Below, piece after piece: positions 7,697 to 39,759 of a DNA stretch of 64,000 bases. The translations under genes were made by a program, and so were the position numbers. The notes below the pieces were generated by a model. The model made no database searches, was not told where the DNA came from, and was given only the letters and a program-made list of their open reading frames with translations. Origin of the DNA: an uncultured Pseudomonadales bacterium (GTDB lineage Bacteria > Pseudomonadota > Gammaproteobacteria > Pseudomonadales > Azotimanducaceae); NCBI GenBank assembly GCA_958296405.1, contig OY282519.1, positions 726,132 through 790,131 of the forward strand, in the 5' to 3' direction. Each line of letters begins with the position of its first letter. The stretch's first letter is position 1.

Positions 7697-7746
7697 GGCC
7701 CGCCCGGAGTGGGGCGCCGCCTCGCTTTCCCCGGTGCTGGCGGAAG

Positions 7747-8259: not shown

Positions 8260-8443
8260 GCGGCAGTCCAGCGCGTTTGGGGTGGCAATGATAGGAGCTT
8301 AGGCCGTTGCTCGGAAGCGCCGGGGCGAGCGCTGTGGCGCCGCGGCGGCGGCTCGCCCGACGACGCAAGCCCGTTTGGGCGTTGCCGCCGTGTGAGCCTT
8401 GGCCTACAGACGCTGCCGCGGGCTTGCGGTAAAACGGCGCACC

Positions 8444-12267: not shown

Positions 12268-12289
12268 TGGCGGGGCGAGGCCCCATCTA

Positions 12290-17605: not shown

Positions 17606-20296
17606 ATGTCAGATGATGAGAAGCCGCTGTTGCTCGTTGACGGCTCCTCGTACCTGTTCCGCGCCTTCCACGCGCTGCCGAACCTGACGGCGGCGGATGA
17701 CTTCCCGACCGGCGCCCTGTACGGCGTGGTCAACATGCTCCGCAAGCTCGCCAAGGACTATGCCGGCAGCCCGGTGGCCGTGGTGTTCGACGCCTCCGGC
17801 AAGACTTTCCGCAACGACATCTATCCAGAGTACAAGGCGAATCGGCCGCGGATGCCGGACGAGCTGCGCTGCCAGGTCGAGCCGATTCACGAGACGATCA
17901 AAGCGCTCGGCATGCCGCTGCTCATCGTGCCCGGCGTTGAGGCGGATGACGTCATCGGCACGCTGGCGCGCCAAGCCGACGCGGCCAAGCGGCGCACCGT
18001 CATCTCCACTTCCGACAAAGACATGGCGCAACTCGTCAGCCAGACGGTCACCCTCGTCAACACCATGAGCGACCAGACGCTGGACCGGGGCGGGGTGGAA
18101 GCGAAGTATGGCGTTCCGCCGGAGCGCATCGTGGACTATCTGGCGCTGATGGGCGACAGCGTGGACAACATCCCGGGGGTGCCGAAGGTGGGGCCGAAGA
18201 CCGCGGCGAAGTGGCTCAAGACGTTCGGCAGCCTTGATGCGGTGATCGCCCGTGCCGGGGAAGTGAAGGGCAAGATCGGCGAGAGCCTGCGCGAGGCGCT
18301 GGATCAATTGCCGCTGTCGCGGCATCTTGCAACGATTCGTTGCGACGTGGAACTGCCGGTGGCGCTTGCGGACTTGGTGCCGCGGCCCGTGGACGTCGAT
18401 GCCTTGGCCGCGCTGTTCGAACGCTATGACTTCCGCGTGTGGCTCGCCGAGCTCGGCGTGCCGAGCGCCGCGCCGGAACCGGCCATCGCGCGGGACTATG
18501 TCCGCATCGACTCGCTGGAGGCGCTTGAGGATTGGTGCGCGAGGTTGCGCGCTGCCGGCACATTTGCCTTCGCGATGCACACCGGGCCGCGTCACTACAT
18601 GGATGCGGACATCGTTGGCCTTTCCTTCGCCGCCGAGGCCGGCAAGGCGGCGTACCTGCCACTTGGCCATGATCTTGCCGGCGCCGAGCAGGTGGCGCTT
18701 GCCGATGCGTTGCGCGTCCTCACGCCGCTGTTGGAAGACGCATCGATCCGCAAGGTGGGGCAAGACCTCAAGTTCGCCGTCAACGTGCTGGCGAACCACG
18801 GCATCGCCCTGGCTGGGGCGGACTACGACACCATGCTCGAATCCTACGTCTTCGACAGCGTGGCAACGCGCCGCCACAGCTTGGAGGACCTGTCGGCCAA
18901 GCATTTGGGCCTGCAGGCGGCGCGCTATGACGATCTCGCCGGGCGGGGTGCCAAGCGGTTGGAGTTTGCCGCGGTGGCGGTGGACCAAGCCGTCCATTAC
19001 GCGGCCGAGCGGGCAGACTTGGCGTTGCGCCTGCATGAGGCGCTGTGGCCGAAGCTCACAGCCAGGGGCCGCCTGCAGGCGATCTATGCGGACATCGAAC
19101 GGCCGCTGATGCCGGTGCTGGCCCGCGTCGAGCGCGCCGGCGCGTTGGTGGACGCGAAGCGTCTGGCGGAGCATGGCCGAGAACTTCAGGAACGGTTGCA
19201 GACGCTTGCCGAGCAGGCTTACGCGGAGGCCGGGCGGCCCTTCAACTTGGGCTCGCCGAAGCAACTGCAGGAGGTGCTCTACGACGAACTGGCGCTGCCA
19301 GTGCTGCAGAAGACGCAGACCGGCCAGCGCTCCACGGCGGAAACCGCCTTGGAGGAACTGGCGCAGGACCATCTGCTGCCACGCCTCATTCTGGACCACC
19401 GGCGCCTCGCTAAGCTGAAGTCCACCTACCTCGATGCGCTGCCCAAGCAAATCAAGCAGCGCACCGGCCGCGTCCACACCACCTATGGGCAGGCCGTGGC
19501 CGCCACCGGCCGCCTCGCCTCGCAGGATCCGAACTTGCAGAACATCCCCATCCGCACCGCGGAAGGGCGCCGCATCCGGGCGGCATTCGTGGCGCCGCCG
19601 GGGTGCAAGCTCGTCGCCGCGGACTATTCCCAGATCGAACTGCGCATCATGGCGCACCTCTCTGGCGACGATGGCTTGCGGCGCGCCTTTCGTGAAGGCC
19701 AAGACGTGCATCGCGCCACCGCTGCGGAAGTGTTTGGCCGCGCGCCGCAAGCTGTGAGCGAAGATGAGCGGCGCAGCGCCAAGACCATCAACTTCGGCCT
19801 CATCTACGGCATGTCGGCCTTCGGCTTGGCGCGCGAGCTGAGCGTCCCTCGCGGCGTGGCGCAGGGCTACATCGACCGCTACTTCGAGCGCTATCCGGAC
19901 GTGCGCGATTACATGCAAGGCATCCGCAGCCAAGCTCGGGAGACGGGTTTCGTGGAAACGGCGTACGGCCGGCGGCTCTACCTGCCGGACATCCGCGCCC
20001 GGCAGGTGGGCCGCCGCCAAGCAGCCGAGCGCACGGCCATCAACGCGCCCATGCAGGGCACCGCCGCGGACGTCATCAAGCGCGCCATGATCGCCGTGGA
20101 CGCATGGCTTGCCACCGCCGGCCTGCCGGCGCGCATGGTCATGCAGGTGCATGACGAGCTGGTTTTCGAGGTGGCGGAGGATGCGGTGGACGCGCTCGTG
20201 AAGGGCGCAGTTGAGCGCATGGAAGCGGCGGCGGACCTGTCCGTGGGGTTGGTGGTGGATGTGGGCGTTGGCGACAACTGGGATCAAGCCCACTAG
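17606..20296 (+). CDS. polA: DNA polymerase I
   Basis: 896 aa, preceded by a GGGGGGAGG Shine-Dalgarno. Has the 5' nuclease N-terminus (LLLVDGSSYLFRAFHA), a 3'-5' exonuclease region and polymerase motifs (DYSQIELRIMAH, RRSAKTINFGLIYG, QVHDELVFE). Confidence 0.97.
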   Translation: MSDDEKPLLLVDGSSYLFRAFHALPNLTAADDFPTGALYGVVNMLRKLAKDYAGSPVAVVFDASGKTFRNDIYPEYKANRPRMPDELRCQVEPIHETIKALGMPLLIVPGVEADDVIGTLARQADAAKRRTVISTSDKDMAQLVSQTVTLVNTMSDQTLDRGGVEAKYGVPPERIVDYLALMGDSVDNIPGVPKVGPKTAAKWLKTFGSLDAVIARAGEVKGKIGESLREALDQLPLSRHLATIRCDVELPVALADLVPRPVDVDALAALFERYDFRVWLAELGVPSAAPEPAIARDYVRIDSLEALEDWCARLRAAGTFAFAMHTGPRHYMDADIVGLSFAAEAGKAAYLPLGHDLAGAEQVALADALRVLTPLLEDASIRKVGQDLKFAVNVLANHGIALAGADYDTMLESYVFDSVATRRHSLEDLSAKHLGLQAARYDDLAGRGAKRLEFAAVAVDQAVHYAAERADLALRLHEALWPKLTARGRLQAIYADIERPLMPVLARVERAGALVDAKRLAEHGRELQERLQTLAEQAYAEAGRPFNLGSPKQLQEVLYDELALPVLQKTQTGQRSTAETALEELAQDHLLPRLILDHRRLAKLKSTYLDALPKQIKQRTGRVHTTYGQAVAATGRLASQDPNLQNIPIRTAEGRRIRAAFVAPPGCKLVAADYSQIELRIMAHLSGDDGLRRAFREGQDVHRATAAEVFGRAPQAVSEDERRSAKTINFGLIYGMSAFGLARELSVPRGVAQGYIDRYFERYPDVRDYMQGIRSQARETGFVETAYGRRLYLPDIRARQVGRRQAAERTAINAPMQGTAADVIKRAMIAVDAWLATAGLPARMVMQVHDELVFEVAEDAVDALVKGAVERMEAAADLSVGLVVDVGVGDNWDQAH

Positions 20297-20400
20297 CCTG
20301 CTCGCCCGTTAGCCCAATACGAGCAGGTCGTGCCAAAGCCGCGGTCTGGCCGCGTTTGCGCCATCGGCTCGCCGCACGTCCTTGGCGGCGCGATTCGCCC

Positions 20401-21006
20401 CTAAGCCTCGGTCGCGGCGTCTCCCGCTGCGAGAAAGGCGGCGATCTGCGCTGTGGCGGCGTCGGCGCCGAGGCCAGTCACCGCGGAGAATGGCACGGCA
20501 ACGGCGTCTTCAAGGGCAGCCACCCGCGCCGCCACGGCCCGCTCCGCTGTCAAACGCGCGCCGTGGCGCAGCTTGTCGCATTTGTTGAGCAAGATGACGA
20601 GCGGTTTGCCGGCGGCCTGCGCCCACGCCAGCAGTTGCTCGTCGAAGGGCTGAAAGGGGCGGCGCGCGTCCATGATGAGCACCACCGCCGCCAAGCTCGC
20701 CCGATGCGAGAGATAGTCGTCGATGGCTTTGCTCCAGCGTTGGCGGCTGTCCTTGCTCGCGTTCGCATAGCCATAGCCGGGCAAGTCCACGAGGCGGCCG
20801 CCGCCGGCGACGGCGAAGAAGTTGATGAGCCGCGTGCGCCCAGGCGTTTTGCTGACGCGGGCCAAGCGCCGCGCCCCGGCGAGGCGATTCAAGGCGCTGG
20901 ACTTGCCGGCGTTCGAGCGCCCGACGAACGCCACCTCCGGCTCATCGTCGGCGGGGCACTGCGCGAGCGTTGCGGCGCTGGTGAGGAAATGCGCGGACAG
21001 GGCCAT
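20401..21006 (-). CDS. engB: Ribosome biogenesis GTPase EngB/YihA
   Basis: GRSNAGKSS (G1), DLPGYGYA (G3) and LLNKCDKL (G4). Conserved neighbour of polA and cytochrome c4. Confidence 0.9.
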   Translation of the reverse strand: MALSAHFLTSAATLAQCPADDEPEVAFVGRSNAGKSSALNRLAGARRLARVSKTPGRTRLINFFAVAGGGRLVDLPGYGYANASKDSRQRWSKAIDDYLSHRASLAAVVLIMDARRPFQPFDEQLLAWAQAAGKPLVILLNKCDKLRHGARLTAERAVAARVAALEDAVAVPFSAVTGLGADAATAQIAAFLAAGDAATEA

Positions 21007-21100
21007 GCGCGGTATACTCCCATTGCGGCGCTGCGCGGCAGTTTAGCGGCTCGCGCGCGCAAATTTGGGCTAGATTGATTTGGGCTGGAGCGCTCTCCAC

Positions 21101-21694
21101 ATGCGTTTTCTCCGATGGGTGGCTGCGCTGGGGTTGGCCGCCGTTTGCTCGGCGGCGGACGTCGACACCCTCATTCTGCCTTGCGCGGCTTGCCACGGGC
21201 AGGATGGCGCCTCCGGCATCGCGCCGGATTACCCGAACTTGGCCGGGCAGAACGAGCGCTATCTCTTCGAGCAACTGCTCATGATCAAGTCTGGCGAACG
21301 CCCGGCGCCGCTCATGGCCGGGCAACTCAACCATCTCTCTGAAGAAGATTTGGCGGCCATGTCTGCGTACTACGCCGCGCTGCCGGCGCAGGTGGGCCGC
21401 TCTGCGCCAGAGACCGTGGATGCCGGCATGCACATCTATCGAGGCGGGGTGATGGCGAAGGGCGTCGCCGCCTGCACCGCTTGCCATTCGCCCACGGGCG
21501 CCGGCAACGCCCCCGCTGGGTTTCCGATGCTCTCTGGGCAGCGGTTCGATTACGTCGTGGCGCAGCTCATCGCCTATCGGGAAGGCCAACGCAAGACGGA
21601 CGAAGCCCACGGCGCGATGATGCGCCAAGTGGCCGCCCGGCTGACGGACACGGAAATCCGCGCCGTTGCCAACTATGTCCAAGGGCTGCATTGA
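21101..21694 (+). CDS. Diheme cytochrome c4
   Basis: Signal peptide MRFLRWVAALGLAAVCSA and two CxxCH haem sites (CAACHG, CTACHS), each followed by a distal Met region. ~197 aa. Confidence 0.85.
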   Translation: MRFLRWVAALGLAAVCSAADVDTLILPCAACHGQDGASGIAPDYPNLAGQNERYLFEQLLMIKSGERPAPLMAGQLNHLSEEDLAAMSAYYAALPAQVGRSAPETVDAGMHIYRGGVMAKGVAACTACHSPTGAGNAPAGFPMLSGQRFDYVVAQLIAYREGQRKTDEAHGAMMRQVAARLTDTEIRAVANYVQGLH

Positions 21695-27802: not shown

Positions 27803-28684
27803 CTAACGTCGCCGCGCCGGCCGCCGCTCGCGGGGCTTTGCCCCGGTCATGTCCATCAGCCGCTCGCCGAGGAGTTCCAAATCCTCGTAAGTGGCGTCCA
27901 CGCCGAGTTCCACCGCCTGATTGACGACGATCTGCGACATGGAGAAGCTGCCGCTGGCTGCGTGGATGACGGCGCCGTTGGGCGCGTTTTCCGCGCACAT
28001 GAACAGCACGGCCGGGCTCACCAGCTTGGGATGGCGCTCAGCCGGCGGCGCTTCGACGTCCTCGGCGCGGCCGGGCACGGTGTTGGTCATGCGCGTGGCG
28101 GCGCCCGGCGCCAGCGTGTTGACGCGCACATTGTGGTTCGCTCCCTCAAGGGCGAGCACGTTCATCAGCCCCAACATGCCCATCTTGGCAGCGCCATAGT
28201 TGGATTGGCCGAAATTGCCGAAGATGCCAGAGCCGGAACTCGTCAGCACGATGCGCCCGTAGTTCTGCGCGTACATCAGCGGCCAAGCCGCATGGGTCAC
28301 ATAGGCGGTGCCGTTCAGGTGAACGCTGATGACGAGGTCCCACTCGTCCAAGGTCATGTTCTTGAACGTCTTGTCGCGCAGGATGCCGGCGTTGTTGACG
28401 AGGATGTCGATGCGCCCGAAGGCGTCGATGGCCGTTTGCACGATGGATTGGGCGCCCTCGCGGTCTGAGACGGACGCCTTGTTTGCCACCGCGACGCCGC
28501 CCAAGGCGGCGATTTCCTGCACCACGGCGTCTGCGGCATCGCCGGCGCCGGTGCCATCCACGCTGCCGCCAAGGTCGTTCACCACCACCTTGGCGCCGCG
28601 CTTGGCGAACTCGATGGCGTGGCAGCGCCCAAGGCCACCGCCGGCGCCCGTGACGACGGCTACTTTTCCTTCGAACTCACTCAT
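27803..28684 (-). CDS. Short-chain dehydrogenase/reductase, MFE-2-type (3R)-hydroxyacyl-CoA dehydrogenase-like
   Basis: ATG 28684 is preceded by a GGGAGA Shine-Dalgarno. [28 protein letters not shown] and YGAAKMG (YxxxK) give the pattern typical of the dehydrogenase domain of multifunctional enzyme type 2. Confidence 0.8.
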
Positions 28685-28709
28685 CAATGTCTCCCTGCTT
28701 CGGGGGCGC

Positions 28710-29486
28710 TCATGGGGCGTCCTTGGGGCCCTGTTGAGGTTGGCTTATGGTGCCCCCCCCCCGGCGAGAGGTGGAATGGGACGGCACCGTCAGCACATAG
28801 TTCCCGTTGAAGGCGCGGCGGAACGCGACCCAAAGCGAGAGCAGAATGAGCTTCAAGTCTTCCACGGGGCCCATGCGCTCGATGTATCGTTTGTCGTAGC
28901 CCAGCTTCTCCGCCGGGTGCGTCCAGTAACCGCGCTGCCCATACGCCTGCGCGAGGCCGGCGATGCCGGGCCGCACCATCAGGCGATCTGCGAAGCCGGG
29001 CGTTTCGCGGCCAAAGCTGTGGGCGAGTTCAGGGCGCTCTGGGCGCGGCCCGACGACGCTCATGTCGCCGCGCAGAATGTTGATGACCTGCGGAATCTCA
29101 TCTAAGTGGAAGCGCCGCAACATCTTGCCCACGCGAGTGGTGCGGGCGTCGTCCAACGTGGCCCACACCGGCCCGGTGTGCGCCTCCGCATCGGTGACCA
29201 TGGTGCGGAACTTGATGAGGCGGAACGGCTTGCCGAAGCGGCCGAGGCGCTGTTGCGTGTAGAAGATCGGACGCCGGTCTTCAAGATAGATGGCCAACGG
29301 AACGAAAATCCACACCGCTGCCCAAAGCGGTAGCAGGAGCACGATGGCTAAGGTGACAAAGGCGAGGTCGAAGGGGCGCTTGTAAAGCTCTGACGCACCC
29401 CGTCGGGCGTCCACGGCCGGCACCGAGGTGCCGTTGGTGTGGGGCTCAGGGGTGGTAGTGGTAGCCATGTAGCGGGATTGTCGCAC
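28710..29486 (-). CDS. Small (monotopic-type) phosphoglycosyl transferase, bacterial sugar transferase family
   Basis: KRPFDLAFV..., [14 protein letters not shown] and [15 protein letters not shown] are hallmarks of the PF02397-type undecaprenyl-phosphate sugar-phosphate transferases. The start is GTG 29486 or ATG 29468. Confidence 0.85.
28753..28762. repeat. C10 (G10 on the coding strand) homopolymer inside the 3' end of the sugar transferase gene
   Basis: Read directly: tgcccccccccc. It encodes R-G-G-G, 16 codons before the stop. Confidence 0.95.
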
Positions 29487-29522
29487 TAGGCGGGGCGTCT
29501 AAACAAGGCGGGCGGGCGGCGC

Positions 29523-31001
29523 CTATTGTCGCACGACCACATTGCCTGCTTCATCGAGCCGCACTGGGCGCCCGCAGAACTCGTCAGTCATCATGGCCTG
29601 CATCAAGTCGGCGTCTTGGCTGTTGGCCCACACCCGGTCTCCGTTTGGCGTCAGGCATGCGAAATGAGCCACGCTCGGCTCGCCTTGGTCATGCATCACC
29701 GTGTAAGACTCGATGTGGGCGTCGCCGCGCCATGCCGCCAGCGAGATGCGTGACGGCAGGGCGTCGATGTCCGCTTGCACGTCGGCAAAGCGAAAGTCTC
29801 GCTCTGGCGGCGCGCTGGAGTAAACGCCATGCACATGCTTGTAGAGGTTGCCGCCGTTGCCCGTGATGAGGCCGCGTGCGCCTGGGTGCTCGCGGAGCAA
29901 CTCCACCATGCGGGCGATGCTGTGCATGACGTAGTTGTTGAGCGGTCCGCCGCCGAAGGTGAGGCCGCCGGTGACGGTGAGGGAGCGCTGCTGCGAGAGG
30001 CCCAGCTCGTCCGCGGCCACCTGCACCGCCGAGGGAAAGCAACTGTAAAGATCGACGAACGCCAGTTCCTCGACATTGGTTTGGGCCAGTTCCAGCGCCC
30101 GGGCGCCGGTGAGGCGGATGCCGGGCGAGGTGTGGAAGTTGTCTCGCACCGAAGCGCAGAAGTGGTCGTAGCCCTTGGCGCCGGACCACGGATACACCCA
30201 CTTCGCCTCGGTAACGCCCAAGCGCCTTGCCCGCGCCGCGGAGCACATGATGAGCGCCGCCCCCATGTCCACCATCATGTTCGCGTTCATGAACTTGGTG
30301 TAGGGGAAGCCGACCATGCGGTTGGCCGGGGACGGCGCGCGGATTTCCTCCGGCGTCATGTTGTGGCGCACCCAAGCGTTGGGGTTGGCTTGGGCCACAT
30401 CGTTGAAGCCAGACCATAGTTCGGAGACGCGCTGCCGATGCGCGAGGACGGACTCGCCGCGCTGATGGCGGATGGCGTTGTCGTACATCGGATACACCTG
30501 AATGGCGCGCCGAATGCCCTTCGCCATCTCGTGCTCATGGTGCTCGGGCTGTTGCGGCCCGCCGATGAGGACATCGTAGTGTCCGGGGGCTGGCGTTTCC
30601 GCCAGGTTCACCCCAGCGCGGCGCGCCTTGTTGGCGCTGTAGCCGTTCTCGGCGCCGGCGATGAGGACGAAATCCACCTTGCCGGCGAGGATTTCCAACG
30701 CCGTGTGGTTGATGACGGCTTGGTTCTGATTGCCGCCGATGAGCGTGCCGACGGTTTGGGCGTTGGGGGCGCCGATGCGCTCGCGCACCAGCGCGGCCGG
30801 GTTGTCGTATCCCCACATGCCGCGGATGACGCGCACGGACTGCACCCCGTCAAGGGCCGTGCCAATGCCGGCGTCGAGCGCTGCGAGCTCGCTTGCCCGC
30901 AGCATCATCTCGATGGGCTCGACGGCGTCTTCCAGCGCCTCAATGCGGTTCAAGGTTTGGCCGACGCCCACCAGCACCGGCGTATTGGGGTTGGTGGCCA
31001 T
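29523..31001 (-). CDS. Thiolase-fold protein lacking the nucleophilic Cys, with a C-terminal OB-like extension
   Basis: ATG 31001 gives MATNPNTPVLVGVGQ... Thiolase-like blocks are present (VDFVLIAGAENG, DLYSCFPSAVQ, TGGLTFGGGPLNNY). The position normally holding the acyl-accepting Cys reads IGGNQNQAV. The last ~90 aa (AHIESYTVMH...VAHFACLTPNGDRVWAN...GRPVRL) resemble the OB part of DUF35 proteins. The ORF-track start at 31643 lies inside the crotonase gene. Confidence 0.7.
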   Translation of the reverse strand: MATNPNTPVLVGVGQTLNRIEALEDAVEPIEMMLRASELAALDAGIGTALDGVQSVRVIRGMWGYDNPAALVRERIGAPNAQTVGTLIGGNQNQAVINHTALEILAGKVDFVLIAGAENGYSANKARRAGVNLAETPAPGHYDVLIGGPQQPEHHEHEMAKGIRRAIQVYPMYDNAIRHQRGESVLAHRQRVSELWSGFNDVAQANPNAWVRHNMTPEEIRAPSPANRMVGFPYTKFMNANMMVDMGAALIMCSAARARRLGVTEAKWVYPWSGAKGYDHFCASVRDNFHTSPGIRLTGARALELAQTNVEELAFVDLYSCFPSAVQVAADELGLSQQRSLTVTGGLTFGGGPLNNYVMHSIARMVELLREHPGARGLITGNGGNLYKHVHGVYSSAPPERDFRFADVQADIDALPSRISLAAWRGDAHIESYTVMHDQGEPSVAHFACLTPNGDRVWANSQDADLMQAMMTDEFCGRPVRLDEAGNVVVRQ

Positions 31002-31021
31002 GTGCTTGGGCGCGGAGCCGG

Positions 31022-31795
31022 TCAGCCCTGCGCCCAAGCAGCCTTGCGCTTCTCGCGGAACGCCGCCATGCCCTCCGCCGCTTCTTCCGAGCGGAACATG
31101 CGGCCGCTCCAAGTGGCCGTTTCCTTGAAGCCCTCTGCCATGGAGAGCTGCGGAACGCGCCGCACCAACCGCTTGCATTCGACCACGGCGTTTGGCCCGC
31201 CCAAGTTGATCATGTCGATCGTCTCCTGCGTCGCGGCGCGCAGCGCGTCCTTGGGCACGGCGCGATGGACGAAGCCCATCGCCACGGCGTCGGCGCCGGT
31301 GAAGCGCTCGCCGGTGAGGAACAGCTTCATGGCATGGTGGGTGCCGAGCTTCGGAATGCACACCACGGAAATCACCGCGGGAATCACGCCGATGCGCACT
31401 TCGCTGAACGAGAACAGGGCGTCCTCCACCGCCACCACGATGTCGGCGGCGCCAACGAGCCCCAAGCCGCCGGCGAAGGCGTGGCCGTTCACCGCGGCGA
31501 TGACCGGCTTGTCGCTTTCCATGATGGTGGTCAGCACGGTCGGATACGGCACGGACTGACGCCCCGAGATGGTTTGCCCTGGGGGGCTCTTGAGGTCTGC
31601 CCCGGAACAGAAGGCCGGGTCTGCGCCGGTGATGACGATGCAACGCACGGCTGGGTCGCCATTGGCCGCCAGCAAGTGTTCGTGGAGTTCGCTCACCAAC
31701 ACCGCGGAGAGGGCGTTGCGGTTGTCTGGCCGGTTCAGCGTGATCCAGGCAGCGCCGCTGTCGATGTCGTACAGGGTTGCGTCGGTGGTCTGCAT
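31022..31795 (-). CDS. Crotonase-superfamily enzyme (enoyl-CoA hydratase/isomerase family)
   Basis: ITLNRPDNRNAL, ITGADPAFCSGADL and AAVNGHAFAGGLGLVGAADI..FSFSEVRIGVIP are crotonase blocks. Only the second of the two canonical catalytic Glu residues is present, in FSE. The first aligns to Gly in GGLGLVG (aligned by eye). Confidence 0.85.
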   Translation of the reverse strand: MQTTDATLYDIDSGAAWITLNRPDNRNALSAVLVSELHEHLLAANGDPAVRCIVITGADPAFCSGADLKSPPGQTISGRQSVPYPTVLTTIMESDKPVIAAVNGHAFAGGLGLVGAADIVVAVEDALFSFSEVRIGVIPAVISVVCIPKLGTHHAMKLFLTGERFTGADAVAMGFVHRAVPKDALRAATQETIDMINLGGPNAVVECKRLVRRVPQLSMAEGFKETATWSGRMFRSEEAAEGMAAFREKRKAAWAQG

Positions 31796-31805
31796 GGCTC
31801 TGCCC

Positions 31806-33791
31806 TCAACTCTCTTGGTTTGCTTCCAACACGATCAGGAGCGCGCCGTTGTCCACTTGGTCGCCATCGCGCACCAACAGCTCGGTGACGGTGCCGGCCG
31901 CCGGTGCCGTGATGCGATGCTCCATCTTCATGGCTTCCAGCACCAGCAGCAGTTGGCCTTGCGCCACGACGGCGCCCTCGGCGACGTGAACGGCGGTCAC
32001 GTTGCCGGGCATGGGCGCCCGGAGCCCGCCGCTCACCTCGGCGCGGCCGGCGGTGGGGAAGCGTGGCAGCTCGGATAACTCCACGTCGCCGAACGGCCCA
32101 TGCACAAACCACACCCCGTGCTCCAACCCCATCACCATCGCGGCGACGCGCCGCCCGTCGATCTCGAGATCGATGTCGGCGTCGCCATTGGCGAACACCG
32201 CCACGGACAGTTCCGCGTCCTCAACCTGCACCTTGAAGGCGCCGTCGCGCTGCGCTTGGTAACGCACCGTCAATTCGGCTTCGCCGCAGCGGAACGCCGT
32301 CGTTTGCGGCGGCATGATGGAGTTGCGCCAGCCGCTGGCGATGCCTTGCAGCACCGTGGCCTGCAGGCGCCGCTGCCACTGCGCGTGGAGCGCCGCGGCG
32401 ATGGCGGCGTCGCGCAATTCGGCGCTTGCGAGGCCGCGCGTTCGCGAAGGGGCCACGCGGTCGATGAAGTCTGTCGTGGTGTCGCCTTCCAGAAAGGCTG
32501 GCTCGCGCAACGTGGCGACAAGGAAGTCTCGGTTGTTCGTCACCCCCTGCAGGCGTGTCTTCTCAAGCACGCGCGCCAGCCGCCCGGCCGCCTCGCGGCG
32601 GGTCGGCGCGTGGACGATCACCTTGGCGATCATCGGGTCGAACTCGATGCTCACATCGCTGCCGGCCTCGATGCCCGAATCAAAGCGCGCCCCACGGGCG
32701 GGTTCCCATGCGCGCACCCGGCCGCCGCTGGGCAAGAAGTCGTTGGCGGGATCTTCCGCGTAGAGGCGCGCTTCGATGGCGTGGCCGCTGAAGGCAACAT
32801 CTTCCTGGCTGTAGCCCAAGGGTTCGCCCTCGGCGATGCGCAGTTGCTCGCGCACCAAGTCCAACCCGGTGATGGCTTCCGTGACGGGATGCTCCACCTG
32901 CAGGCGGGCGTTCACTTCCAAGAACCAGAACTGGCCGCCGTCCACCAAGAACTCGACGGTGCCGGCGGACGCATAGCCAATGCGCTGCGCCGCCGCCACG
33001 GCCGCGGCGCCCATTTGCGCGCGCAGCGCAGCATCCACGGCTGGCGAGGGCGCTTCCTCGATGATCTTCTGGTGGCGGCGCTGAATGGAACATTCGCGCT
33101 CGAAGAGATGCACGAGGTTGCCGTGCAAATCGCCCAAGATCTGGATTTCCACATGGCGCGGCGCGGTGAGCCAGCGCTCGAGAAACACGGTGTCGTCGCC
33201 GAACGCGGACGCCGCTTCACGGCGCGCGCTCGCCACTGCCTCGGCGAGCTCAGTGGCTTCGCGGACGATGCGCATGCCCCTGCCGCCGCCGCCGGCCGCT
33301 GCTTTCACCAGCACGGGGTAGCCGATTTCGTTTGCCGCCGCAGCCAAATCGCCATCGGCGGTGAGTTCAACCGCCGGCAGGGTCGGCACGTCCGCTTCGC
33401 GCATCAAGCGCTTGGCGGCGAGCTTGTCGCCCATGGCGCTTAAGGCCGTGAACGATGGCCCCACCCAGCGAACGCCGGCCGCCTCCACTGCGGCGGCGAA
33501 CTGCGCGCTCTCGGAGAGAAAGCCATAGCCCGGGTGTACCGCGTCCGCGCCGCATCGCTTAGCGGCGTCGGTGACTTTGGCGATGTTGAGGTAGGTGTCG
33601 GTGGAGCCGCTGCCGTGCAGGGCAATGGCCGTGTCTGCCTCGCGCACGAACGGCGCGTTGGCGTCGCTGTCTGCGTAAACCGCAACCGTGTCCATGCCCA
33701 TGTCATGCGCCGAGCGAATCACGCGCCGCGCGATTTCGCCCCGGTTGGCGATCAACAGCCGCCGAATGGGTTGGATGCCTACATCCGCCAT
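31806..33791 (-). CDS. Biotin-dependent acyl-CoA carboxylase alpha subunit (biotin carboxylase + BCCP), MCC/GCC type
   Basis: 661 aa. ATP-grasp biotin carboxylase blocks (LIANRGEIA, GYPVLVKAAAGGGGRGMR, EMNARLQVEHPVTE-like EVNARLQVEHPVTE) and the C-terminal biotinylation site EAMKME. Confidence 0.9.
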   Translation of the reverse strand: MADVGIQPIRRLLIANRGEIARRVIRSAHDMGMDTVAVYADSDANAPFVREADTAIALHGSGSTDTYLNIAKVTDAAKRCGADAVHPGYGFLSESAQFAAAVEAAGVRWVGPSFTALSAMGDKLAAKRLMREADVPTLPAVELTADGDLAAAANEIGYPVLVKAAAGGGGRGMRIVREATELAEAVASARREAASAFGDDTVFLERWLTAPRHVEIQILGDLHGNLVHLFERECSIQRRHQKIIEEAPSPAVDAALRAQMGAAAVAAAQRIGYASAGTVEFLVDGGQFWFLEVNARLQVEHPVTEAITGLDLVREQLRIAEGEPLGYSQEDVAFSGHAIEARLYAEDPANDFLPSGGRVRAWEPARGARFDSGIEAGSDVSIEFDPMIAKVIVHAPTRREAAGRLARVLEKTRLQGVTNNRDFLVATLREPAFLEGDTTTDFIDRVAPSRTRGLASAELRDAAIAAALHAQWQRRLQATVLQGIASGWRNSIMPPQTTAFRCGEAELTVRYQAQRDGAFKVQVEDAELSVAVFANGDADIDLEIDGRRVAAMVMGLEHGVWFVHGPFGDVELSELPRFPTAGRAEVSGGLRAPMPGNVTAVHVAEGAVVAQGQLLLVLEAMKMEHRITAPAAGTVTELLVRDGDQVDNGALLIVLEANQES

Positions 33792-35413
33792 GTGCCGAAC
33801 TCCTTAGTGCCGCGCACTTCGCCGTTGTGGCAGACGGACAACGCGATGGCGATCGCGGCGCGCGTGTCGCGTGGGTCGATCATGCCGTCGTCGGCAACCC
33901 GCGACGTGGCGTACAGCCCCTTGGAACGCTCCTCCGCCCAGTGCTCGGCGACGGCCACGCGCTTGGCGTTGGCTTCTTCGTCGAACTCAAGCCCGCGGCG
34001 CGTCGCTGCGGCGCGTTGCACGATGGTCATCACCCCGGCCATCTGCTTTGGCCCCATGACGGCGATCTTCGCCGTGGGCCAGATGAACGTGAAGCGCGTG
34101 TCGTAGGCGCGCCCGCTCATGCCGTAGTTGCCGGCGCCATACGACGCGCCGACGATGACGGTGATGTGCGGCACCGTCGAGTTGGACACGGCGTTGATCA
34201 TCTTCGAGCCATTCTTGGTGATGCCGCCCTGCTCGAAGTCTGTGCCCACCACATAGCCCGTGATGTTGTGCAGGAACAGCAGCGGCACGTCGATTTGGTT
34301 GCAGAGCTGAATGAACTGCGACGCCTTCTCCGCGGACGCGGAGAGCAGCGGGCCGTTGTTGCCGAGGATGCCGATGGGATAGCCGTGCAGCGACGCCCAG
34401 CCGGTGACCAACGTCGTCCCGTAGAGGGGCTTGAACTCCTCGAACCGCGAGCCATCCACGATGCGGGCGATGACGTCGCGCATGTCGAAGGGAACGCGCA
34501 GGTCCTCGTTGACGATGCCGAGCAGCTCCTCAGCGTCGTGCAGCGGTTCGTCCGCCGGCATGGAAGGGCCGGGCCCCAGCTTGCGCCAGTTGAGGTGCGC
34601 CACCACCTCGCGGCACATGCGGATGCCGTCCATCTCGTCCAAGGCCAGGTAGTCGCCCAAGCCGGAGGTGCGCGTATGCATGTCGGCGCCGGCGAGCGCT
34701 TCGTAATCCGCGTCCTCGCCGGTGGCCATCTTCACCAGCGGCGGCCCGCCAAGGGCCACTTGGGATTGCCCCTTGATGAAGATGTTGTAGTCGCTCATGC
34801 CCGGCTGGTAGGCGCCGCCGGCGGTGGAGGCGCCGAACACCAGCGAGATGGTGGGAATGCGCATCTTCGACAGTTCGGTGATTTCGTAGAAGAGCCGGCC
34901 AGATTCCGCGAAGTGGCCGCCCTCGCGGCGAATGGACGCCTCCGGGTCTCCGCCGCCGCCTTCGCCGCGCAAGTCCGCCCCGGCGGATTCCACGAATTGC
35001 ACGTAGGGAATGCGGTTCTTGCGGGCGATCTCCAAGCCGCGCATCAGCTTCTTGCTGTTGAACTGATTGAAGGCGCCGGCGCGCACGGATGGATCGTGGC
35101 CGAGCACCAGGCACTCGGTGTTTTCGATGATGCCGATGCCGACGATGAAGCCGGAGCCCACCGCGTAGTTTGACCGCCACGCCGCGAGCGGGCTGATCTC
35201 CAAGAAAGGGGAGTCTCTATCGAGCACCAAGCTGATGCGTTCGCGCAGCGGCAGCTTGTCCCGCGAGCGCAGCCGCGCCATGGCCTCGGGGCCACCGCCG
35301 TTGGACGCCTCGGCGTACAACTCGTCGAGCTGCGCGAGGGTCTTCAGCATGTGCGCGCGATTCTCGCGGTGAGCATCCGAACGGACGTTCAGTTGCGACT
35401 CAAGCACGGCCAT
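33779..35413 (-). CDS. Acyl-CoA carboxylase carboxyltransferase (beta) subunit, MCC/GCC type
   Basis: 544 aa. KLPLRERISLVLDRDSPFLEISPLAA, a two-domain crotonase-like carboxyltransferase, and a length typical of methylcrotonyl-/geranyl-CoA carboxylase beta. The stop overlaps the alpha-subunit start by 13 nt. Confidence 0.85.
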   Translation of the reverse strand: MAVLESQLNVRSDAHRENRAHMLKTLAQLDELYAEASNGGGPEAMARLRSRDKLPLRERISLVLDRDSPFLEISPLAAWRSNYAVGSGFIVGIGIIENTECLVLGHDPSVRAGAFNQFNSKKLMRGLEIARKNRIPYVQFVESAGADLRGEGGGGDPEASIRREGGHFAESGRLFYEITELSKMRIPTISLVFGASTAGGAYQPGMSDYNIFIKGQSQVALGGPPLVKMATGEDADYEALAGADMHTRTSGLGDYLALDEMDGIRMCREVVAHLNWRKLGPGPSMPADEPLHDAEELLGIVNEDLRVPFDMRDVIARIVDGSRFEEFKPLYGTTLVTGWASLHGYPIGILGNNGPLLSASAEKASQFIQLCNQIDVPLLFLHNITGYVVGTDFEQGGITKNGSKMINAVSNSTVPHITVIVGASYGAGNYGMSGRAYDTRFTFIWPTAKIAVMGPKQMAGVMTIVQRAAATRRGLEFDEEANAKRVAVAEHWAEERSKGLYATSRVADDGMIDPRDTRAAIAIALSVCHNGEVRGTKEFGTWRM

Positions 35414-35491
35414 TCAATGTTCTCCAAAGGCTGCGCGGCAAGCGGCTGGCGTCGCTGCCGCGGGTGATGTAAGGGGCGTTGCCGCGGCGAA

Positions 35492-36574
35492 CTACCTGCT
35501 GAGCGCGTCGTTGCTCTGCCAAGGGGCGATCTGCCCATCGTAGACGTCCGGTCCGTTGCGGAAGTGCGCCGCCTCTTGCAGCGTTTCCACAAACGGCATC
35601 TCGCGCGGATACAGGCGTTCGCCACGCGGGCGCGGCCCGGCCTTGGAGACGTGCCCCCACAAGGGGTGCCCCACCACCTCTTCGGCGATGGCGGCGGCCT
35701 CGATGAGCTTGTCCAAGTTGTAGCCGGTTTTGATGCCGAGCTCGTGGCACAGGTCCACGAAATCTTCAGTGGGCACATGGCCGGCGGCGCGGCCATTGCC
35801 ACAGTACGGACAGCCGCCCATGCCGCCGATGGAGGTGTCGAACTCGCGCACGCCGAGCTTCAACGCCTCGTAGTAGCTGGCGATGGTGACGCCGCGGGTG
35901 TTGTGCAGATGCATGTGGAAATCGGTGATTTCCGGCCAGCGCTCCTTGATGGCGACGATGGTGTCATGCACCTGATTGGGCAAGTTCCAGCCCATCGCCT
36001 CGAGGAACGAGCAGCGCGTCACTTCGATGCCGACGGCGTGCCACTTGTCCACCATCAGCTCCAACAGCCCCATGCGCTGCGCCATGGAGAAGGCGCCCTC
36101 GAAGTTCGAGCCGAACGGGTTGCCGATGGCCACGGAGCCAGTGGTGGCGCCAGCGGCCTTGGCGGCGGCGATGGTGCCTTCCATGGCGCCGATTTGCTCG
36201 GCTTGGGTGCGGTTGTAGTTGCGCCGCGCGAAGGTGTCGCAGAGTTCCACGTGGGTGCCGAAGCGGCGCTGCCGCACGTCCAGCTTTGGATAGTAGGCGT
36301 CTGCCCTGTCGAAGCCGCGCTTGTTGAACACCGCGGCGGTGTACCTGATGCCGGGCTTGGGCTCGAAGCGCTCGGCGAGGTCGTCGATGCAGCCCATCTG
36401 TGGCGTCCACTTGGGGTGGGCGAACGAGCCGATGCTGATGACGCTGGCGCCGGTTTCGCCCAAGGCGTCGAGCAGGCGCAGCTTCGCTTCCACCGGGATG
36501 TCGGCCGCCTCGATCTGCAGGCCTTCGCGCATGGTGTCGTCGTTGATGACGACAGATTCAGGAAACCCGCTCAT
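35492..36574 (-). CDS. DRE-TIM metallolyase, HMG-CoA-lyase-like (atypically long, 360 aa)
   Basis: ATG 36574 is preceded by a GGGGGAGAG Shine-Dalgarno. DDTMREGLQ (in place of the usual RDGLQ), SFAHPKWTPQM, HMHLHNTRG and GGMGGCPY match the HMGL-like/pyruvate carboxyltransferase TIM-barrel pattern. A ~60-aa C-terminal extension follows. Confidence 0.75.
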   Translation of the reverse strand: MSGFPESVVINDDTMREGLQIEAADIPVEAKLRLLDALGETGASVISIGSFAHPKWTPQMGCIDDLAERFEPKPGIRYTAAVFNKRGFDRADAYYPKLDVRQRRFGTHVELCDTFARRNYNRTQAEQIGAMEGTIAAAKAAGATTGSVAIGNPFGSNFEGAFSMAQRMGLLELMVDKWHAVGIEVTRCSFLEAMGWNLPNQVHDTIVAIKERWPEITDFHMHLHNTRGVTIASYYEALKLGVREFDTSIGGMGGCPYCGNGRAAGHVPTEDFVDLCHELGIKTGYNLDKLIEAAAIAEEVVGHPLWGHVSKAGPRPRGERLYPREMPFVETLQEAAHFRNGPDVYDGQIAPWQSNDALSR

Positions 36575-36644: not shown

Positions 36645-36706
36645 AACGGTTGCCGCGAACTCCCAAACTCGATGCCGATGCCGCTTCGAGAGCAACGGTT
36701 GCCGCG
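36645..36706. promoter_or_regulatory. Two copies of a 13-nt direct repeat (aacggttgccgcg) 49 nt apart, upstream of the lyase-carboxylase operon
   Basis: Exact repeats at 36645-36657 and 36694-36706, each preceded by gccgctt, lying 70-130 nt upstream of the 36574 start codon within a 426-bp non-coding gap. The function is inferred only. Confidence 0.25.
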
Positions 36707-37000: not shown

Positions 37001-38035
37001 TCAGCCCCGTTGCCCATCCACCAAAATGTCCTCCGAGCCCCCCGGCAAATCAAAGGTCATGCCATCTTCGGTGAGCACCACGCTGTCTGGGATGTCGCGC
37101 ATGAAAATCGCGGCCATCAGCGTGTTCTGCGGCACCGGGACAAGATGGTAGAAGGCGAGTTTGCGCACGCCGATGCGCTCGGCCAACGCGGCCACGTCGG
37201 TAGTGTGGGCGTGGTAATCCAGCACATCGACCAGCACTTTCTGCATGCGCGGGTTGGCTCGCGCGGCCATCGCGGAGACGAGTGGCTCGGACAGGGCGTC
37301 GTGAATCAAGAGATCGACGCCAGCGGCCATGCTCTCCAAGCTCGGCGTGACGACGGTATCGCCACTCACCACCACCGAGCGGCCCTTGTAATCGAAGCGG
37401 TAGCCGAAGGCGGGCGCCACGGGGGAGTGATCCACCACGAACGCCGTGATGCGCAGGCCGTCGGCATCATGCACTACGCCGGGTTCGATGACCCGCGGCT
37501 GCATCACGCCGAGCGCCGGCGGCAGCAGGTCTTCGCCGTGGTGGTCGATGCGGTGTTGTCGGTCCTGCGCGTAGGCGCGATTGAAGCCCGCCACCACCTC
37601 TTCGATGCCCGGCGGCCCCACCACTTGCAGCGGCGCCGGGCGCCCCGCCACCCAAGACCTCTGGTTGTGGTTTGGCAAGCCGTCGATGTGGTCCGAGTGG
37701 TAGTGCGTGATGAAAACGGCCTCAAGGTGTTGCGCGGGGATGCGCTCCAGCGTCAGCGTTTGCCCGGAACCGGCGCCGGCGTCCACAAGGTAGAAACGTT
37801 TGCCGACCAACACTGCCACGCATGCCCGCCGGCCGACGGCGCCCAGCGGCGAAGCCGTGCCGCACATCACCACCCGCAACGTGTCTGCCGGCGGCGTGGC
37901 CGCTGGCGCCGTCAAGGCGCCAGTCGCAAACTCCAAGGCCATGTCTTGCCCGGCGCGGGTTTGCATGACGAACCAATAGCCGGCCGCAGCGAGCGCCAGC
38001 AAGGCCGCCAAGACGGCCAGCAACAGGCGTTTCAA
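37001..38035 (-). CDS. Membrane-anchored or secreted MBL-fold metallo-hydrolase (RNase Z/ElaC-like subgroup)
   Basis: TTG 38035 overlaps the upstream thiolase stop (TTGA) and gives MKRLLLAVLAALLALAAAGYWFV (signal or anchor). Also has VMCGTASP, FYLVDAGAGS, ITHYHSDHIDGL (HxHxDH) and a later DALSE/YHAH region. Confidence 0.8.
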   Translation of the reverse strand: MKRLLLAVLAALLALAAAGYWFVMQTRAGQDMALEFATGALTAPAATPPADTLRVVMCGTASPLGAVGRRACVAVLVGKRFYLVDAGAGSGQTLTLERIPAQHLEAVFITHYHSDHIDGLPNHNQRSWVAGRPAPLQVVGPPGIEEVVAGFNRAYAQDRQHRIDHHGEDLLPPALGVMQPRVIEPGVVHDADGLRITAFVVDHSPVAPAFGYRFDYKGRSVVVSGDTVVTPSLESMAAGVDLLIHDALSEPLVSAMAARANPRMQKVLVDVLDYHAHTTDVAALAERIGVRKLAFYHLVPVPQNTLMAAIFMRDIPDSVVLTEDGMTFDLPGGSEDILVDGQRG

Positions 38036-39243
38036 GAATCTGCCGTCAGCACGAGGGTGCCGGTGGTGGACAGCGTGCCGCCGGTGCCGTTCACCACGCA
38101 GGTGCGGGCGTTGGTCTGCTTGCCGGCAATGCCGTTCACCCCGTCCTCGGCGGTGCCGGAGAGCTGGCGGTACGCCTCCACCAACAGCTGCATGCCGTAC
38201 ATGCCGGAGTGGTTGAACGACAGGCCGCCGCCGTTGGTGTTGATGGGCAGCCGCCCGCCGGGCGCGGCGTGGCCTTCCTTCCACAGCGTGTAGCCCTTGC
38301 CGCGCGGCGCGAGGCCGAGCATCTCCGCGGTGATGCCGGCGGTGATGGTGAAGGAGTCGTAGATCATCGCCATTTCCATGTCCGCCGGCCCAAGCCCGGC
38401 CATCTTGTAGGCGGTGGCGGACGAACGAGATGCTGACGTGGCGGTGAAGTCTTCCATCTCCAGCATGTTCTGATGCCCCATGGATTCGCCGGCGCCGCTG
38501 ATCCACACCGGGTTGGTGCGCAGGCTGCGGGCGATCTCCGGCCGCGCCACGATGACGGCGCCGCCGTGGTCGGTGACCAAGCAGCAGTTGTAGAGCGTGA
38601 GCGGCCACGCGATGAGCCGGGCTTCCGTGACATCCTGCAAGGTGATCGGCCCGCCGAACGGGCTTTGCTTCTTGTCGAACATCACGGCGCGCGGGTTGAG
38701 CGTGGCCCACTGCCGCGTGACCACGGCGATGTGGGCGAAATCTTCCGCGGTGGTGCCGAAGCGGTGGAAGTGGCGCACCATCGCATGGGCGTATTGCGAG
38801 GGCGCGCCGAAGATGCCGTAGGCCGCCGTCATCTCGGTGGCGGGGCTCACTTGCGCGCCGCCGCGCCCGCCGCCATATCCGCCGCCTCGGTAAGACCAGC
38901 CGGCCTCGCCGTGGCTCACCAGCGCGATGTCGATGATGCCGGCGTGGATGGCTGCGAGCGCATGGTGGACGTGAATCTGGAACGAGCAGCCGCCCACCAT
39001 CGTCGTGTCCAGATAGCGCGGGCGCAGCCCTAGGTGTTCCGCGAGTTCGCCAGACCAGCCGGCGGAGAAGATGCCTTGGATGTCCGCCACGGGAATGCCG
39101 GTCAAGTCGCAGACGTTCTTGATGGCTTCGATGTGGTGCTGCAGCGAGGTGACCCGCTTGCCGATCAGCTCCATCGGATAGCCGATGACGTTGGATTCCG
39201 CAGCGCCGACGATGGCCGCCGCATTCGAAAGGTTCGCCGCCAT
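38032..39243 (-). CDS. Thiolase-fold protein, SCP-x/nonspecific lipid-transfer type
   Basis: ATG 39243 overlaps the DUF35 stop (TGATG). MVGGCSFQ (candidate nucleophile Cys), IALVSHGE, NTNGGGLSFNHSGMYGM and VVNGTGGTLS give the pattern of DUF35-partnered thiolases. Confidence 0.8.
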   Translation of the reverse strand: MAANLSNAAAIVGAAESNVIGYPMELIGKRVTSLQHHIEAIKNVCDLTGIPVADIQGIFSAGWSGELAEHLGLRPRYLDTTMVGGCSFQIHVHHALAAIHAGIIDIALVSHGEAGWSYRGGGYGGGRGGAQVSPATEMTAAYGIFGAPSQYAHAMVRHFHRFGTTAEDFAHIAVVTRQWATLNPRAVMFDKKQSPFGGPITLQDVTEARLIAWPLTLYNCCLVTDHGGAVIVARPEIARSLRTNPVWISGAGESMGHQNMLEMEDFTATSASRSSATAYKMAGLGPADMEMAMIYDSFTITAGITAEMLGLAPRGKGYTLWKEGHAAPGGRLPINTNGGGLSFNHSGMYGMQLLVEAYRQLSGTAEDGVNGIAGKQTNARTCVVNGTGGTLSTTGTLVLTADS

Positions 39244-39662
39244 CACTGCTCCTCCGCCACGCGCCAGAATGGAATGTGGGTGTCTTCGTTGGCTTGTTCG
39301 AACTCCACCCGCACCAAGGCGCCGATTTTGATGCTCTCTGGGCGGGTGGCGTCCACGCCGCGCAGCACCGTCAGCATGCGATCCCCTTCCGCCAAATCGA
39401 TGAATGCGGTGACGTAGGGCACCTCCTGCTGCCAGCCGCCGAAGGCGCGATGCTGCACCGCGTAGGTGTGGATGCGGCCCTCGCCGCTCGCCTGCACCCA
39501 CTCCAGCGCGGCGGAATGGCAGAAGGGGCAGATCAGGCGCGGATACCAGTGCGTGCGATTGCAGTCTGTGCAGCGTGGCAGCATCAGCTTGCCGGCCTTG
39601 GCCCCCTCCCAGAAGGGCTGCGTATGCTGTCCTTGCGGGGGGATGGGTTTGTCGTAAGCCAC
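39243..39662 (-). CDS. Zn-ribbon/OB-fold protein (DUF35 family)
   Basis: PFWEGAKAGKLMLPRCTDCNRTHWYPRLICPFCHS (4-Cys rubredoxin-like ribbon) followed by an OB region (GEGRIHTYAV...VPYVTAFIDLAEG.RMLT...GALVRVEF). The start is GTG 39662 or the ORF-track start at 39695. Confidence 0.8.
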   Translation of the reverse strand: MAYDKPIPPQGQHTQPFWEGAKAGKLMLPRCTDCNRTHWYPRLICPFCHSAALEWVQASGEGRIHTYAVQHRAFGGWQQEVPYVTAFIDLAEGDRMLTVLRGVDATRPESIKIGALVRVEFEQANEDTHIPFWRVAEEQ

Positions 39663-39759
39663 GGTGAAACTCTCTTCGGCGCCAAGCAAACGCAAACCTT
39701 ATCACGGCTGCCTTTCGCTAATCCCGAGGTCCTCTTTGTGCATCACCACCGGACGTGCA

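Follow-up and report, generated by a model that had tools for sequence, protein, structure and literature searches.

The DNA analyzed here is a window of 64,000 nucleotides (nt) from an uncultured Pseudomonadales bacterium whose chromosome is complete at 3.8 Mb (Azotimanducaceae-like; GenBank contig OY282519.1, positions 726,132 to 790,131). Positions 27803-36574 of the window hold, on the minus strand, seven open reading frames that all run in the same direction. They encode a lyase, the two subunits of a biotin-dependent acyl-coenzyme A (CoA) carboxylase, a hydratase, and three further proteins. A first-pass annotation made from the letters of the DNA had described the run as a rearranged operon resembling the clusters for the catabolism of leucine (liu) and acyclic terpenes (atu). 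The coordinates were reproduced, the gaps between the genes were recomputed as the same 78, -13, 10, 20, 36, and 25 nt, and the assigned families were upheld. The genes are given below in the order of transcription, with the basis of each assignment.

35492-36574, minus strand: LYA, HMGL-like lyase, 360 amino acids (aa); Pfam HMGL-like, NCBIfam, PDB sequence matches, and an AlphaFold model
33779-35413, minus strand: CT, carboxyltransferase (beta) subunit, Carboxyl_trans; scores against the beta subunits of the Pseudomonas aeruginosa 3-methylcrotonyl-CoA carboxylase (PaMCC) and geranyl-CoA carboxylase (PaGCC), tree, and loop
31806-33791, minus strand: BC, the alpha subunit, with biotin carboxylase, BT domain, and biotin carboxyl carrier protein (BCCP); Pfam CPSase_L_D2, Biotin_carb_N/C, BT_MCC_alpha, and Biotin_lipoyl
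31022-31795, minus strand: ECH, one-glutamate crotonase; Pfam ECH_1 at 186 bits and residue signature
29523-31001, minus strand: TLP1, thiolase-like protein type 1; PDB 4egv match, Pfam TLP1_add_C, and fingerprints
28710-29486, minus strand: PGT, small phosphoglycosyl transferase, Bac_transf; Pfam at 184 bits
27803-28684, minus strand: SDR, short-chain dehydrogenase/reductase of the multifunctional enzyme type 2 (MFE-2), (3R)-hydroxyacyl-CoA dehydrogenase-like; PDB matches 2et6, 1gz6, and 1zbq

The conserved core of the gene run

The gene run was compared with the best 80 related loci, in which the CT was 74-99% identical to the window CT. The carriers were Gamma-, Alpha-, and Betaproteobacteria, Acidobacteriota, Nitrospirota, and others. 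An actinobacterial origin of the window, at first suggested by its high G+C content and by NCBIfam matches of mycobacterial style, was rejected because the closest genomes are metagenome-assembled genomes of Pseudomonadales/Azotimanducaceae. Counts were made on the 72 or 71 loci with enough sequence, and on a full-context subset of 54. BC directly followed CT in all 72 loci, with a short overlap in 45 of them, as in the window, where the two genes overlap by 13 nt. ECH lay no more than 600 nt after the carboxylase genes in 56 of 71 loci, and LYA no more than 2 kb upstream of CT in 30 of 71. An arrangement with CT-BC adjacency in 72/72 loci and the same overlap in 45 is far beyond chance. In one locus (L008), LYA, CT, BC, and ECH stand alone beside dnaA-dnaN-recF-gyrB, and two more loci (L006 and L007) are laid out alike. 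This stand-alone layout indicates that the four-gene set is a self-contained module.

The conserved unit is LYA, CT, BC-BCCP, and ECH, and the seven-gene run is a local elaboration of it. The seven genes had been described as one operon; among the related loci, only the set of lyase, CT, BC, and hydratase recurs. TLP1 follows the core in only five loci (L001-L005), and two alphaproteobacterial loci (L021 and L039) have distant TLP1-like genes in the vicinity of the cluster. PGT and SDR stand beside the core in only one of the 80 loci, L001, whose genome is a sister to that of the window and about 97% identical to it in nucleotides. TLP1 is thus a lineage-specific attachment and SDR a species-specific one.

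No acyl-CoA dehydrogenase was found in the 64-kb window by tblastn with four representatives at E<=1e-3. The missing dehydrogenase reported in the first pass is therefore true of the window, but it is not a property of the family: 18 of the 54 full-context loci have acyl-CoA dehydrogenase genes, often paired, within the cluster or next to it. The dehydrogenase-free cluster is a peculiarity of the window's lineage. At least 18 acyl-CoA dehydrogenase genes are located elsewhere in the window genome. The contexts of the family relatives include AtuA, acyl-CoA dehydrogenases, an acyl-CoA ligase, TetR, and a Mce lipid importer.

The carboxylase and its clade

To our knowledge, biotin-dependent carboxylases acting on a gamma-carbon are known in two kinds only: 3-methylcrotonyl-CoA carboxylase (MCC) of leucine catabolism and geranyl-CoA carboxylase (GCC) of acyclic terpene catabolism. 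By their sequences, CT and BC are placed in this gamma-carboxylating MCC/GCC lineage. The CT aligns to MCC beta from residue 1, whereas matches to propionyl-CoA carboxylase (PCC) begin at about residue 24, the N-terminal segment being absent from PCC. The alpha subunit contains an MCC-type BT domain (PF21139 BT_MCC_alpha, 53 bits) and the biotinylation motif EAMKM at residue 621.

The window CT scored 482 bits against PaMCC beta (3u9r_B) and 428 bits against PaGCC beta. A second CT/BC pair is present in the same genome at C1:1379503-1383058 (locus L081, 9497-13061). Its CT scored 778 bits against PaMCC beta, which indicates that this second pair is the true MCC. The window CT is 41-43% identical to this MCC beta subunit of the same genome. 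The MCC pair is flanked by a DUF2779 gene and a flavin monooxygenase-like gene, and no gene for isovaleryl-CoA dehydrogenase (IVD), hydratase, or lyase adjoins it. The earlier view, a liu/atu-like route that depends on carboxylation and has a carboxylase other than that of leucine catabolism, is sustained by this separate MCC pair; the unity of the seven genes is not. In an order-level sample of 81 genomes, whose CTs were compared with the window CT, a CT more than 75% identical to it was present in only 3, and all other MCC/GCC-type CTs were at most 46% identical.

Phylogenetic analysis of the CTs against MCC and GCC had been proposed as a check in the first-pass annotation and was performed by maximum likelihood. 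The MCC and GCC reference clades were labelled indirectly, in the order-level genomes, by PDB similarity; the GCC clade was identified via one member (G041b) with 704 bits to PaGCC beta (5ikl_B). The clade of the window CT has 100/100 support and a long stem, and MCC forms a separate group, which places the window CT outside LiuB, contrary to what would have refuted the first-pass reading. The window clade is sister (97/98) to the GCC clade and lies outside it. CTs from actinobacterial plasmids (Rhodococcus, Mycolicibacterium, and Nocardia), 52-56% identical, are its immediate sister (SH-aLRT 99), and GCC is the next sister after them. The cluster of these actinobacterial CTs is AtuA-linked. 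In Rhodococcus sp. DK17 (L105) it reads CT, BC, ECH, a protein of the mycothiol-dependent maleylpyruvate isomerase (MDMPI) family, AtuA, acyl-CoA dehydrogenase, acyl-CoA ligase, and TetR, and it lies beside a Mce importer. A metagenome-assembled genome of Pseudomonadales (L032) carries a CT/BC pair of the window clade with AtuA at 10001-13563 and, 5 kb on, a CT/BC pair of the GCC clade at 18491-21582. The presence of both in one locus argues for different functions of the two carboxylases.

The substrate loop was also compared. In MCC beta, Phe191 follows a 3-residue insertion, and in GCC beta, Gly162 occurs without the insertion (PMC4673880). An invariant substrate segment, RQDEVFPDREHFGRIF, has been described for MCC beta (PMC4347857). 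The loop of the window CT is PEASIRREGGHFAESGRLF, and the whole clade invariably reads RExGHFAESGRLF. Relative to MCC, the loop retains the His-Phe and the last Phe but has lost the first Phe and gained an extra AES insertion. Loops of the GCC clade read DG-GR or similar, whereas the window clade reads GHFAES-GR without Gly162. As judged from its residues, the window loop fits neither the MCC nor the GCC rule, and the extra AES insertion makes the published selectivity rule hard to apply to it. Tree and loop place the window carboxylase with neither LiuB nor AtuC, but in a discrete third clade.

Hydratase, lyase, and the proposed pathway

ECH reads AGGLGL ... FSFSE. Of 61 homologues, 60 have Gly at the position equivalent to Glu144, and all have Glu at the position equivalent to Glu164. 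Its best solved relatives are the enoyl-CoA hydratases 3oc7 and 4knp, presumably mycobacterial structural-genomics entries, and AtuE (4zu2) matches it with 133 bits. The one-glutamate state is known from AtuE, and in Pseudomonas putida LiuC the free carboxylate of the substrate was proposed as a substitute for the missing glutamate (PMC13689101). Sharing this signature with AtuE and LiuC fits a hydratase of gamma-carboxylated enoyl-CoAs, and ECH is predicted to be an alkylglutaconyl-CoA hydratase.

LYA passed the Pfam HMGL-like threshold (83.6 bits versus 29) and scored 177.6 with the NCBIfam model of 3-hydroxy-3-methylglutaryl (HMG)-CoA lyase, under the cut-off of 246. Its PDB sequence matches are HMG-CoA lyases, with E values of 1e-26 to 1e-38. 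We take the catalytic and metal-binding residues of the human HMG-CoA lyase to be Arg41, Asp42, Glu72, His233, His235, and Cys266. In human numbering, LYA keeps Arg41, the HxH pair, and the cysteine of GGCPY. Asp42 is replaced by Glu and Glu72 by Ser, both invariant in 33 clade members, and the full HMG-CoA lyase residue set is thus incomplete. The reading REGLQ instead of RDGLQ, reported in the first pass, was correct. REG was also considered as a unique hallmark of LYA. This was weakened because the nearest shorter HMGL-like relatives, 35-38% identical, carry REG too, and the motif is not unique to the LYA clade. Glu at position 42 is common to these shorter relatives, and position 72 is variable among them. 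A search of 1.8 billion representatives gave a handful of full-length relatives of the long LYA type, with 60, 50, 44, 41, and 35% identity. Beyond these, ordinary HMGL-like proteins of about 300-320 residues were found.

The AlphaFold model of LYA has a mean predicted local distance difference test (pLDDT) value of 72.9. HMG-CoA lyases fill the top 14 places among the Foldseek matches, with E values of about 1e-16 to 5e-19 and TMt values of 0.77-0.81. Isopropylmalate, homocitrate, and citramalate synthases follow behind them at about 1e-10. Sequence and modelled fold favour the lyase family, and LYA is best described as a long variant of the HMG-CoA lyase fold. The public names of the family (clusters P0131, P0135, P0149, P0154, and others) are inconsistent: 'citramalate synthase' (NCBI), 'hydroxymethylglutaryl-CoA lyase' (JGI), and 'hypothetical'. 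Since the model is closest to HMG-CoA lyases, the NCBI name, given to several members, is poorly founded. The C-terminal tail of LYA (residues 306-360, 35492-35660, about 55 aa) is conserved with many invariant positions and has a pLDDT of about 31-36. The tail may need a partner to fold, perhaps the carboxylase.

LYA and AtuA were never found together. Among the 54 full-context loci, LYA lies upstream of CT in 23 and AtuA lies after the hydratase in 21; none has both, and 10 have neither. L040 and L041 against L002 and L008 are examples of this contrast. The pattern extends to whole genomes. Five AtuA-type chromosomes contain AtuA and no gene of the LYA clade, and five LYA-type genomes and the window genome contain LYA and no AtuA. 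No match to AtuA (PF07287) was found in the window genome by a search that found it in 5/5 AtuA-type genomes. As strong statistical evidence, the exclusivity is weakened by the CT tree, in which the LYA-type loci form approximately one derived subclade and the AtuA-type loci and actinobacterial sisters are basal. Only about two changes are needed on this tree, which indicates one or two replacement events and not many independent ones. In the literature, AtuA is expected to perform the cleavage step. The exclusivity fits AtuA as the C-C lyase of atu-type pathways.

Gene content, its conservation, clade placement, and residue patterns are shown by the data, whereas all of the proposed reaction steps are assigned through family membership. 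CT and BC would carboxylate the gamma-carbon of a 3-alkyl-2-enoyl-CoA, with its branch at C3, at the expense of ATP. ECH would hydrate the resulting alkylglutaconyl-CoA to 3-hydroxy-3-alkylglutaryl-CoA. LYA would then cleave this product, by which the branch that blocks beta-oxidation would be removed, in parallel with the Liu and Atu routes. The reading that we prefer is that the module carboxylates, hydrates, and cleaves a beta-branched enoyl-CoA other than 3-methylcrotonyl-CoA and geranyl-CoA; a rough probability of 0.6 is given to it. The exclusion of these two substrates is suggested by the third clade together with the fact that the carboxylase is not the MCC of the cell. Our best guess for the substrate is a natural 2-enoic acid branched at C3, of isoprenoid or other origin. 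The lacking dehydrogenase would fit a substrate that already has the 2,3 double bond; equally, it would fit a dehydrogenase encoded elsewhere. To such a core, the lineage would have added TLP1, and the species would then have added the MFE-2-type dehydrogenase and an unrelated sugar transferase.

Several observations weigh against this reading. The window genome has no canonical HMG-CoA lyase, and LYA is its sole HMGL-like gene. LYA may therefore serve leucine catabolism too. Taken together with the MCC pair that lacks hydratase and lyase genes, this means that LYA and ECH might also, or instead, work for leucine. The selectivity loop keeps the MCC-type His-Phe, which blocks large substrates in MCC, and a bulky isoprenoid substrate is thus not predicted by the published rule. 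The scans for transcription signals were uninformative: no promoter-like sites were found in the sequence, and the six terminator-like sites, none of them between the seven genes, were no commoner than expected from shuffled sequence.

In Pseudomonas, liuRABCDE encodes IVD, MCC beta, methylglutaconyl-CoA hydratase, MCC alpha, and HMG-CoA lyase. The window module resembles this system in the predicted series of gamma-carboxylation of a 3-methyl-2-enoyl-CoA, hydration, and lyase cleavage, in the superfamilies of all four core proteins, in the one-glutamate crotonase, and in the MCC-type BT domain of the alpha subunit. It differs in the order lyase-beta-alpha-hydratase and the lack of IVD, in the clade of its CT, and in the long lyase below the NCBIfam cut-off. 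A rearranged leucine/isovalerate pathway, in which the window carboxylase is a second MCC and LYA and ECH are the HMG-CoA lyase and methylglutaconyl-CoA hydratase, is unlikely in our judgment. It would explain why LYA is the only HMGL-like gene and why neither liuC nor liuE adjoins the true MCC pair, and it agrees with the retained His-Phe and with P. putida LiuC, which is also of the one-glutamate type. However, the genome already has a bona fide MCC that coexists with the window pair, and the two CTs are of low identity and lie in different clades. The MCC motif RQDEVFPDREHFGRIF is kept only in part, with 3 residues inserted, and the module is never found beside an IVD-type liuA in the known liu arrangement. 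A canonical HMG-CoA lyase is also present in 3 of 5 related LYA-type genomes, which indicates that LYA is not merely LiuE.

The other known relative is atuRABCDEFGH of Pseudomonas, which encodes AtuA, the GCC beta subunit AtuC, AtuD, the hydratase AtuE, and the GCC alpha subunit AtuF. That the window genes are the equivalents of atuC, atuF, and atuE for acyclic monoterpenes, with LYA as the lyase, is favoured by the phylogeny: GCC is the nearest characterised carboxylase (second sister), after the AtuA-linked actinobacterial carboxylases, and basal members of the window clade have AtuA directly after the hydratase. The hydratase signature equals that of AtuE, and many clade members and the actinobacterial sisters have AtuA, acyl-CoA dehydrogenases, and TetR in the cluster. 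This explanation is nevertheless quite improbable. The CT scores lower against PaGCC beta than against PaMCC beta and is at most 46% identical to the MCC/GCC-type CTs of the order; the GCC hallmark of Gly162 without insertion is replaced by His-Phe and a longer loop; and the two carboxylases of L032 argue for different jobs. The cluster and the rest of the window lack equivalents of atuA, atuB, and atuD, the subclade of the window CT has the HMGL-fold lyase instead of AtuA, and AtuA is missing from the whole genome. Removal of the C24 side-chain branch of phytosterols by C28 carboxylation, hydration, and retro-aldol cleavage, together with SDR and the nearby SCP-x-type thiolase and DUF35 genes, was also considered and rejected, and is now very improbable. 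Sitosterol side-chain degradation does involve C28 carboxylation (PMC10049677), the neighbourhood includes an SDR of the MFE-2 type and a thiolase of the SCP-x type, and the actinobacterial relative lies beside a Mce importer and an SCP2-domain gene. However, a search for the KshA C-terminal domain, whose control gave only a weak signal, detected none in the genome, which is 98% complete. Both SDR and the thiolase trio are neighbours peculiar to the species, the trio is split from the module in L001 by an opposite-strand MatE gene, and the core is often found by itself next to housekeeping genes.

The carboxylation, hydration, and cleavage of a third, beta-branched substrate thus remains the preferred reading, and a comparison with mycobacteria is relevant to it. 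AccD2-AccA2 of Mycobacterium smegmatis is an MCC paralogue that is dispensable on isovalerate and has a divergent substrate motif, and its function was called an open question (PMC4347857). The AccD2-AccA2 cluster (fadE12, fadE13, and echA7) likewise combines an MCC paralogue with a crotonase and acyl-CoA dehydrogenases. The actinobacterial sister CTs, about 55% identical to the window CT, are at most candidate orthologues of AccD2; unlike the window, their clusters have no HMGL-type lyase. A broader proposal, which we make only tentatively and consider doubtful, is that these enzymes form a third substrate class of gamma-carboxylating carboxylases. This class would be abundant in the environment (Proteobacteria and Acidobacteriota), would be related to AccD2-AccA2, and would act on a common 3-branched enoic acid such as an isoprenoid or phytol product, with AtuA and the long HMGL lyase, two unrelated proteins, performing the same cleavage. 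The third kind is sharply separated and strongly conserved, with at least 74% identity across the best 80 loci from several phyla, and the database names of its members are generic or inconsistent. Identification of the substrate would add a pathway for branched-lipid breakdown in soils, waters, and wastewater and would give a handle on the function of mycobacterial AccD2-AccA2. The alternative of lyase or AtuA is a natural experiment on the role of AtuA. If both perform the same C-C cleavage, the long-unclear role of AtuA would be settled.

Attached and flanking genes

The window TLP1 matches M. smegmatis TLP1 (PDB 4egv) at 1.8e-54. Proteins of the TLP1 type have a thiolase fold in which the nucleophilic Cys is replaced by Gly, NEAF by YSCF, and GHP by GGL, and they carry an additional barrel at the C terminus (PMC3406046). 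The window protein shows the Gly (in LIGGNQ), YSCF, GGL, and a C-terminal Pfam TLP1_add_C domain. It was previously called Cys-less; in fact five Cys are present, but the nucleophilic one is lacking. The likeness to M. smegmatis TLP1 covers the fold, the replaced nucleophile, the fingerprints, and the extra C-terminal domain; it assigns no reaction, as the M. smegmatis protein has neither thiolase activity nor an assigned function. A TLP1 paralogue is located elsewhere in the window genome, and its gene context was uninformative.

PGT is the fastest-diverging gene relative to L001, with 91% nucleotide identity; most neighbours have 96-99%, and TLP1 has 94%. PGT is probably an unrelated passenger gene. 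L001 carries a 1-nt indel between GTG 29486 and ATG 29468. PGT most likely starts at ATG 29468 and not at GTG 29486, and the preceding gap would then be 54 nt. A G10 run inside PGT is interrupted in L001 (GGGGGAAGGG) with the frame unchanged. The assignment of SDR to the MFE-2 type was borne out, as among solved structures it is closest to the (3R)-hydroxyacyl-CoA dehydrogenases 2et6, 1gz6, and 1zbq; the match to 2et6 reaches 395 bits over two stretches.

The region before LYA was aligned to L001:

36575-37000, no strand: upstream region of LYA, with direct repeats and a MatE remnant

This 426-bp gap is mostly the remnant of an opposite-strand MatE gene with a deletion of about 1.2 kb. In L001, the MatE efflux/transporter gene is intact at 7244-9094, on the opposite strand, between LYA and a trio of genes for a DUF35 protein, an SCP-x-type thiolase, and a hydrolase of the metallo-beta-lactamase (MBL) fold. 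Over the last 130 nt or so ahead of LYA, the window and L001 hardly differ, and two 13-nt direct repeats lie upstream of LYA at 36645-36657 and 36694-36706. These 130 nt with the repeats are a probable promoter/operator. The trio occupies 37001-39695 of the window on the same strand as LYA, and among the 80 loci it was found only in L001. L010 and L036 have pairs of DUF35 and SCP-x thiolase genes, about 40% identical, in the vicinity of the cluster. The trio was considered as part of the operon and rejected, because the MatE gene of L001 intervenes on the other strand and the window keeps its deletion remnant. The trio is a separate unit.

In 30 of the 80 proteobacterial loci, the cluster has a neighbouring gene for a glutathione S-transferase (GST; for example, L003 8038-8667). 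In Rhodococcus DK17, the MDMPI-family protein (L105 13391-14212) is encoded at the position that matches GST. GCC is thought to take only the cis isomer of its substrate (PMC4673880). Given this preference, the isomerase-like neighbours may set the double-bond geometry, and the GST and MDMPI-type proteins may have analogous roles as thiol-dependent E/Z isomerases that act on the enoyl-CoA substrate.

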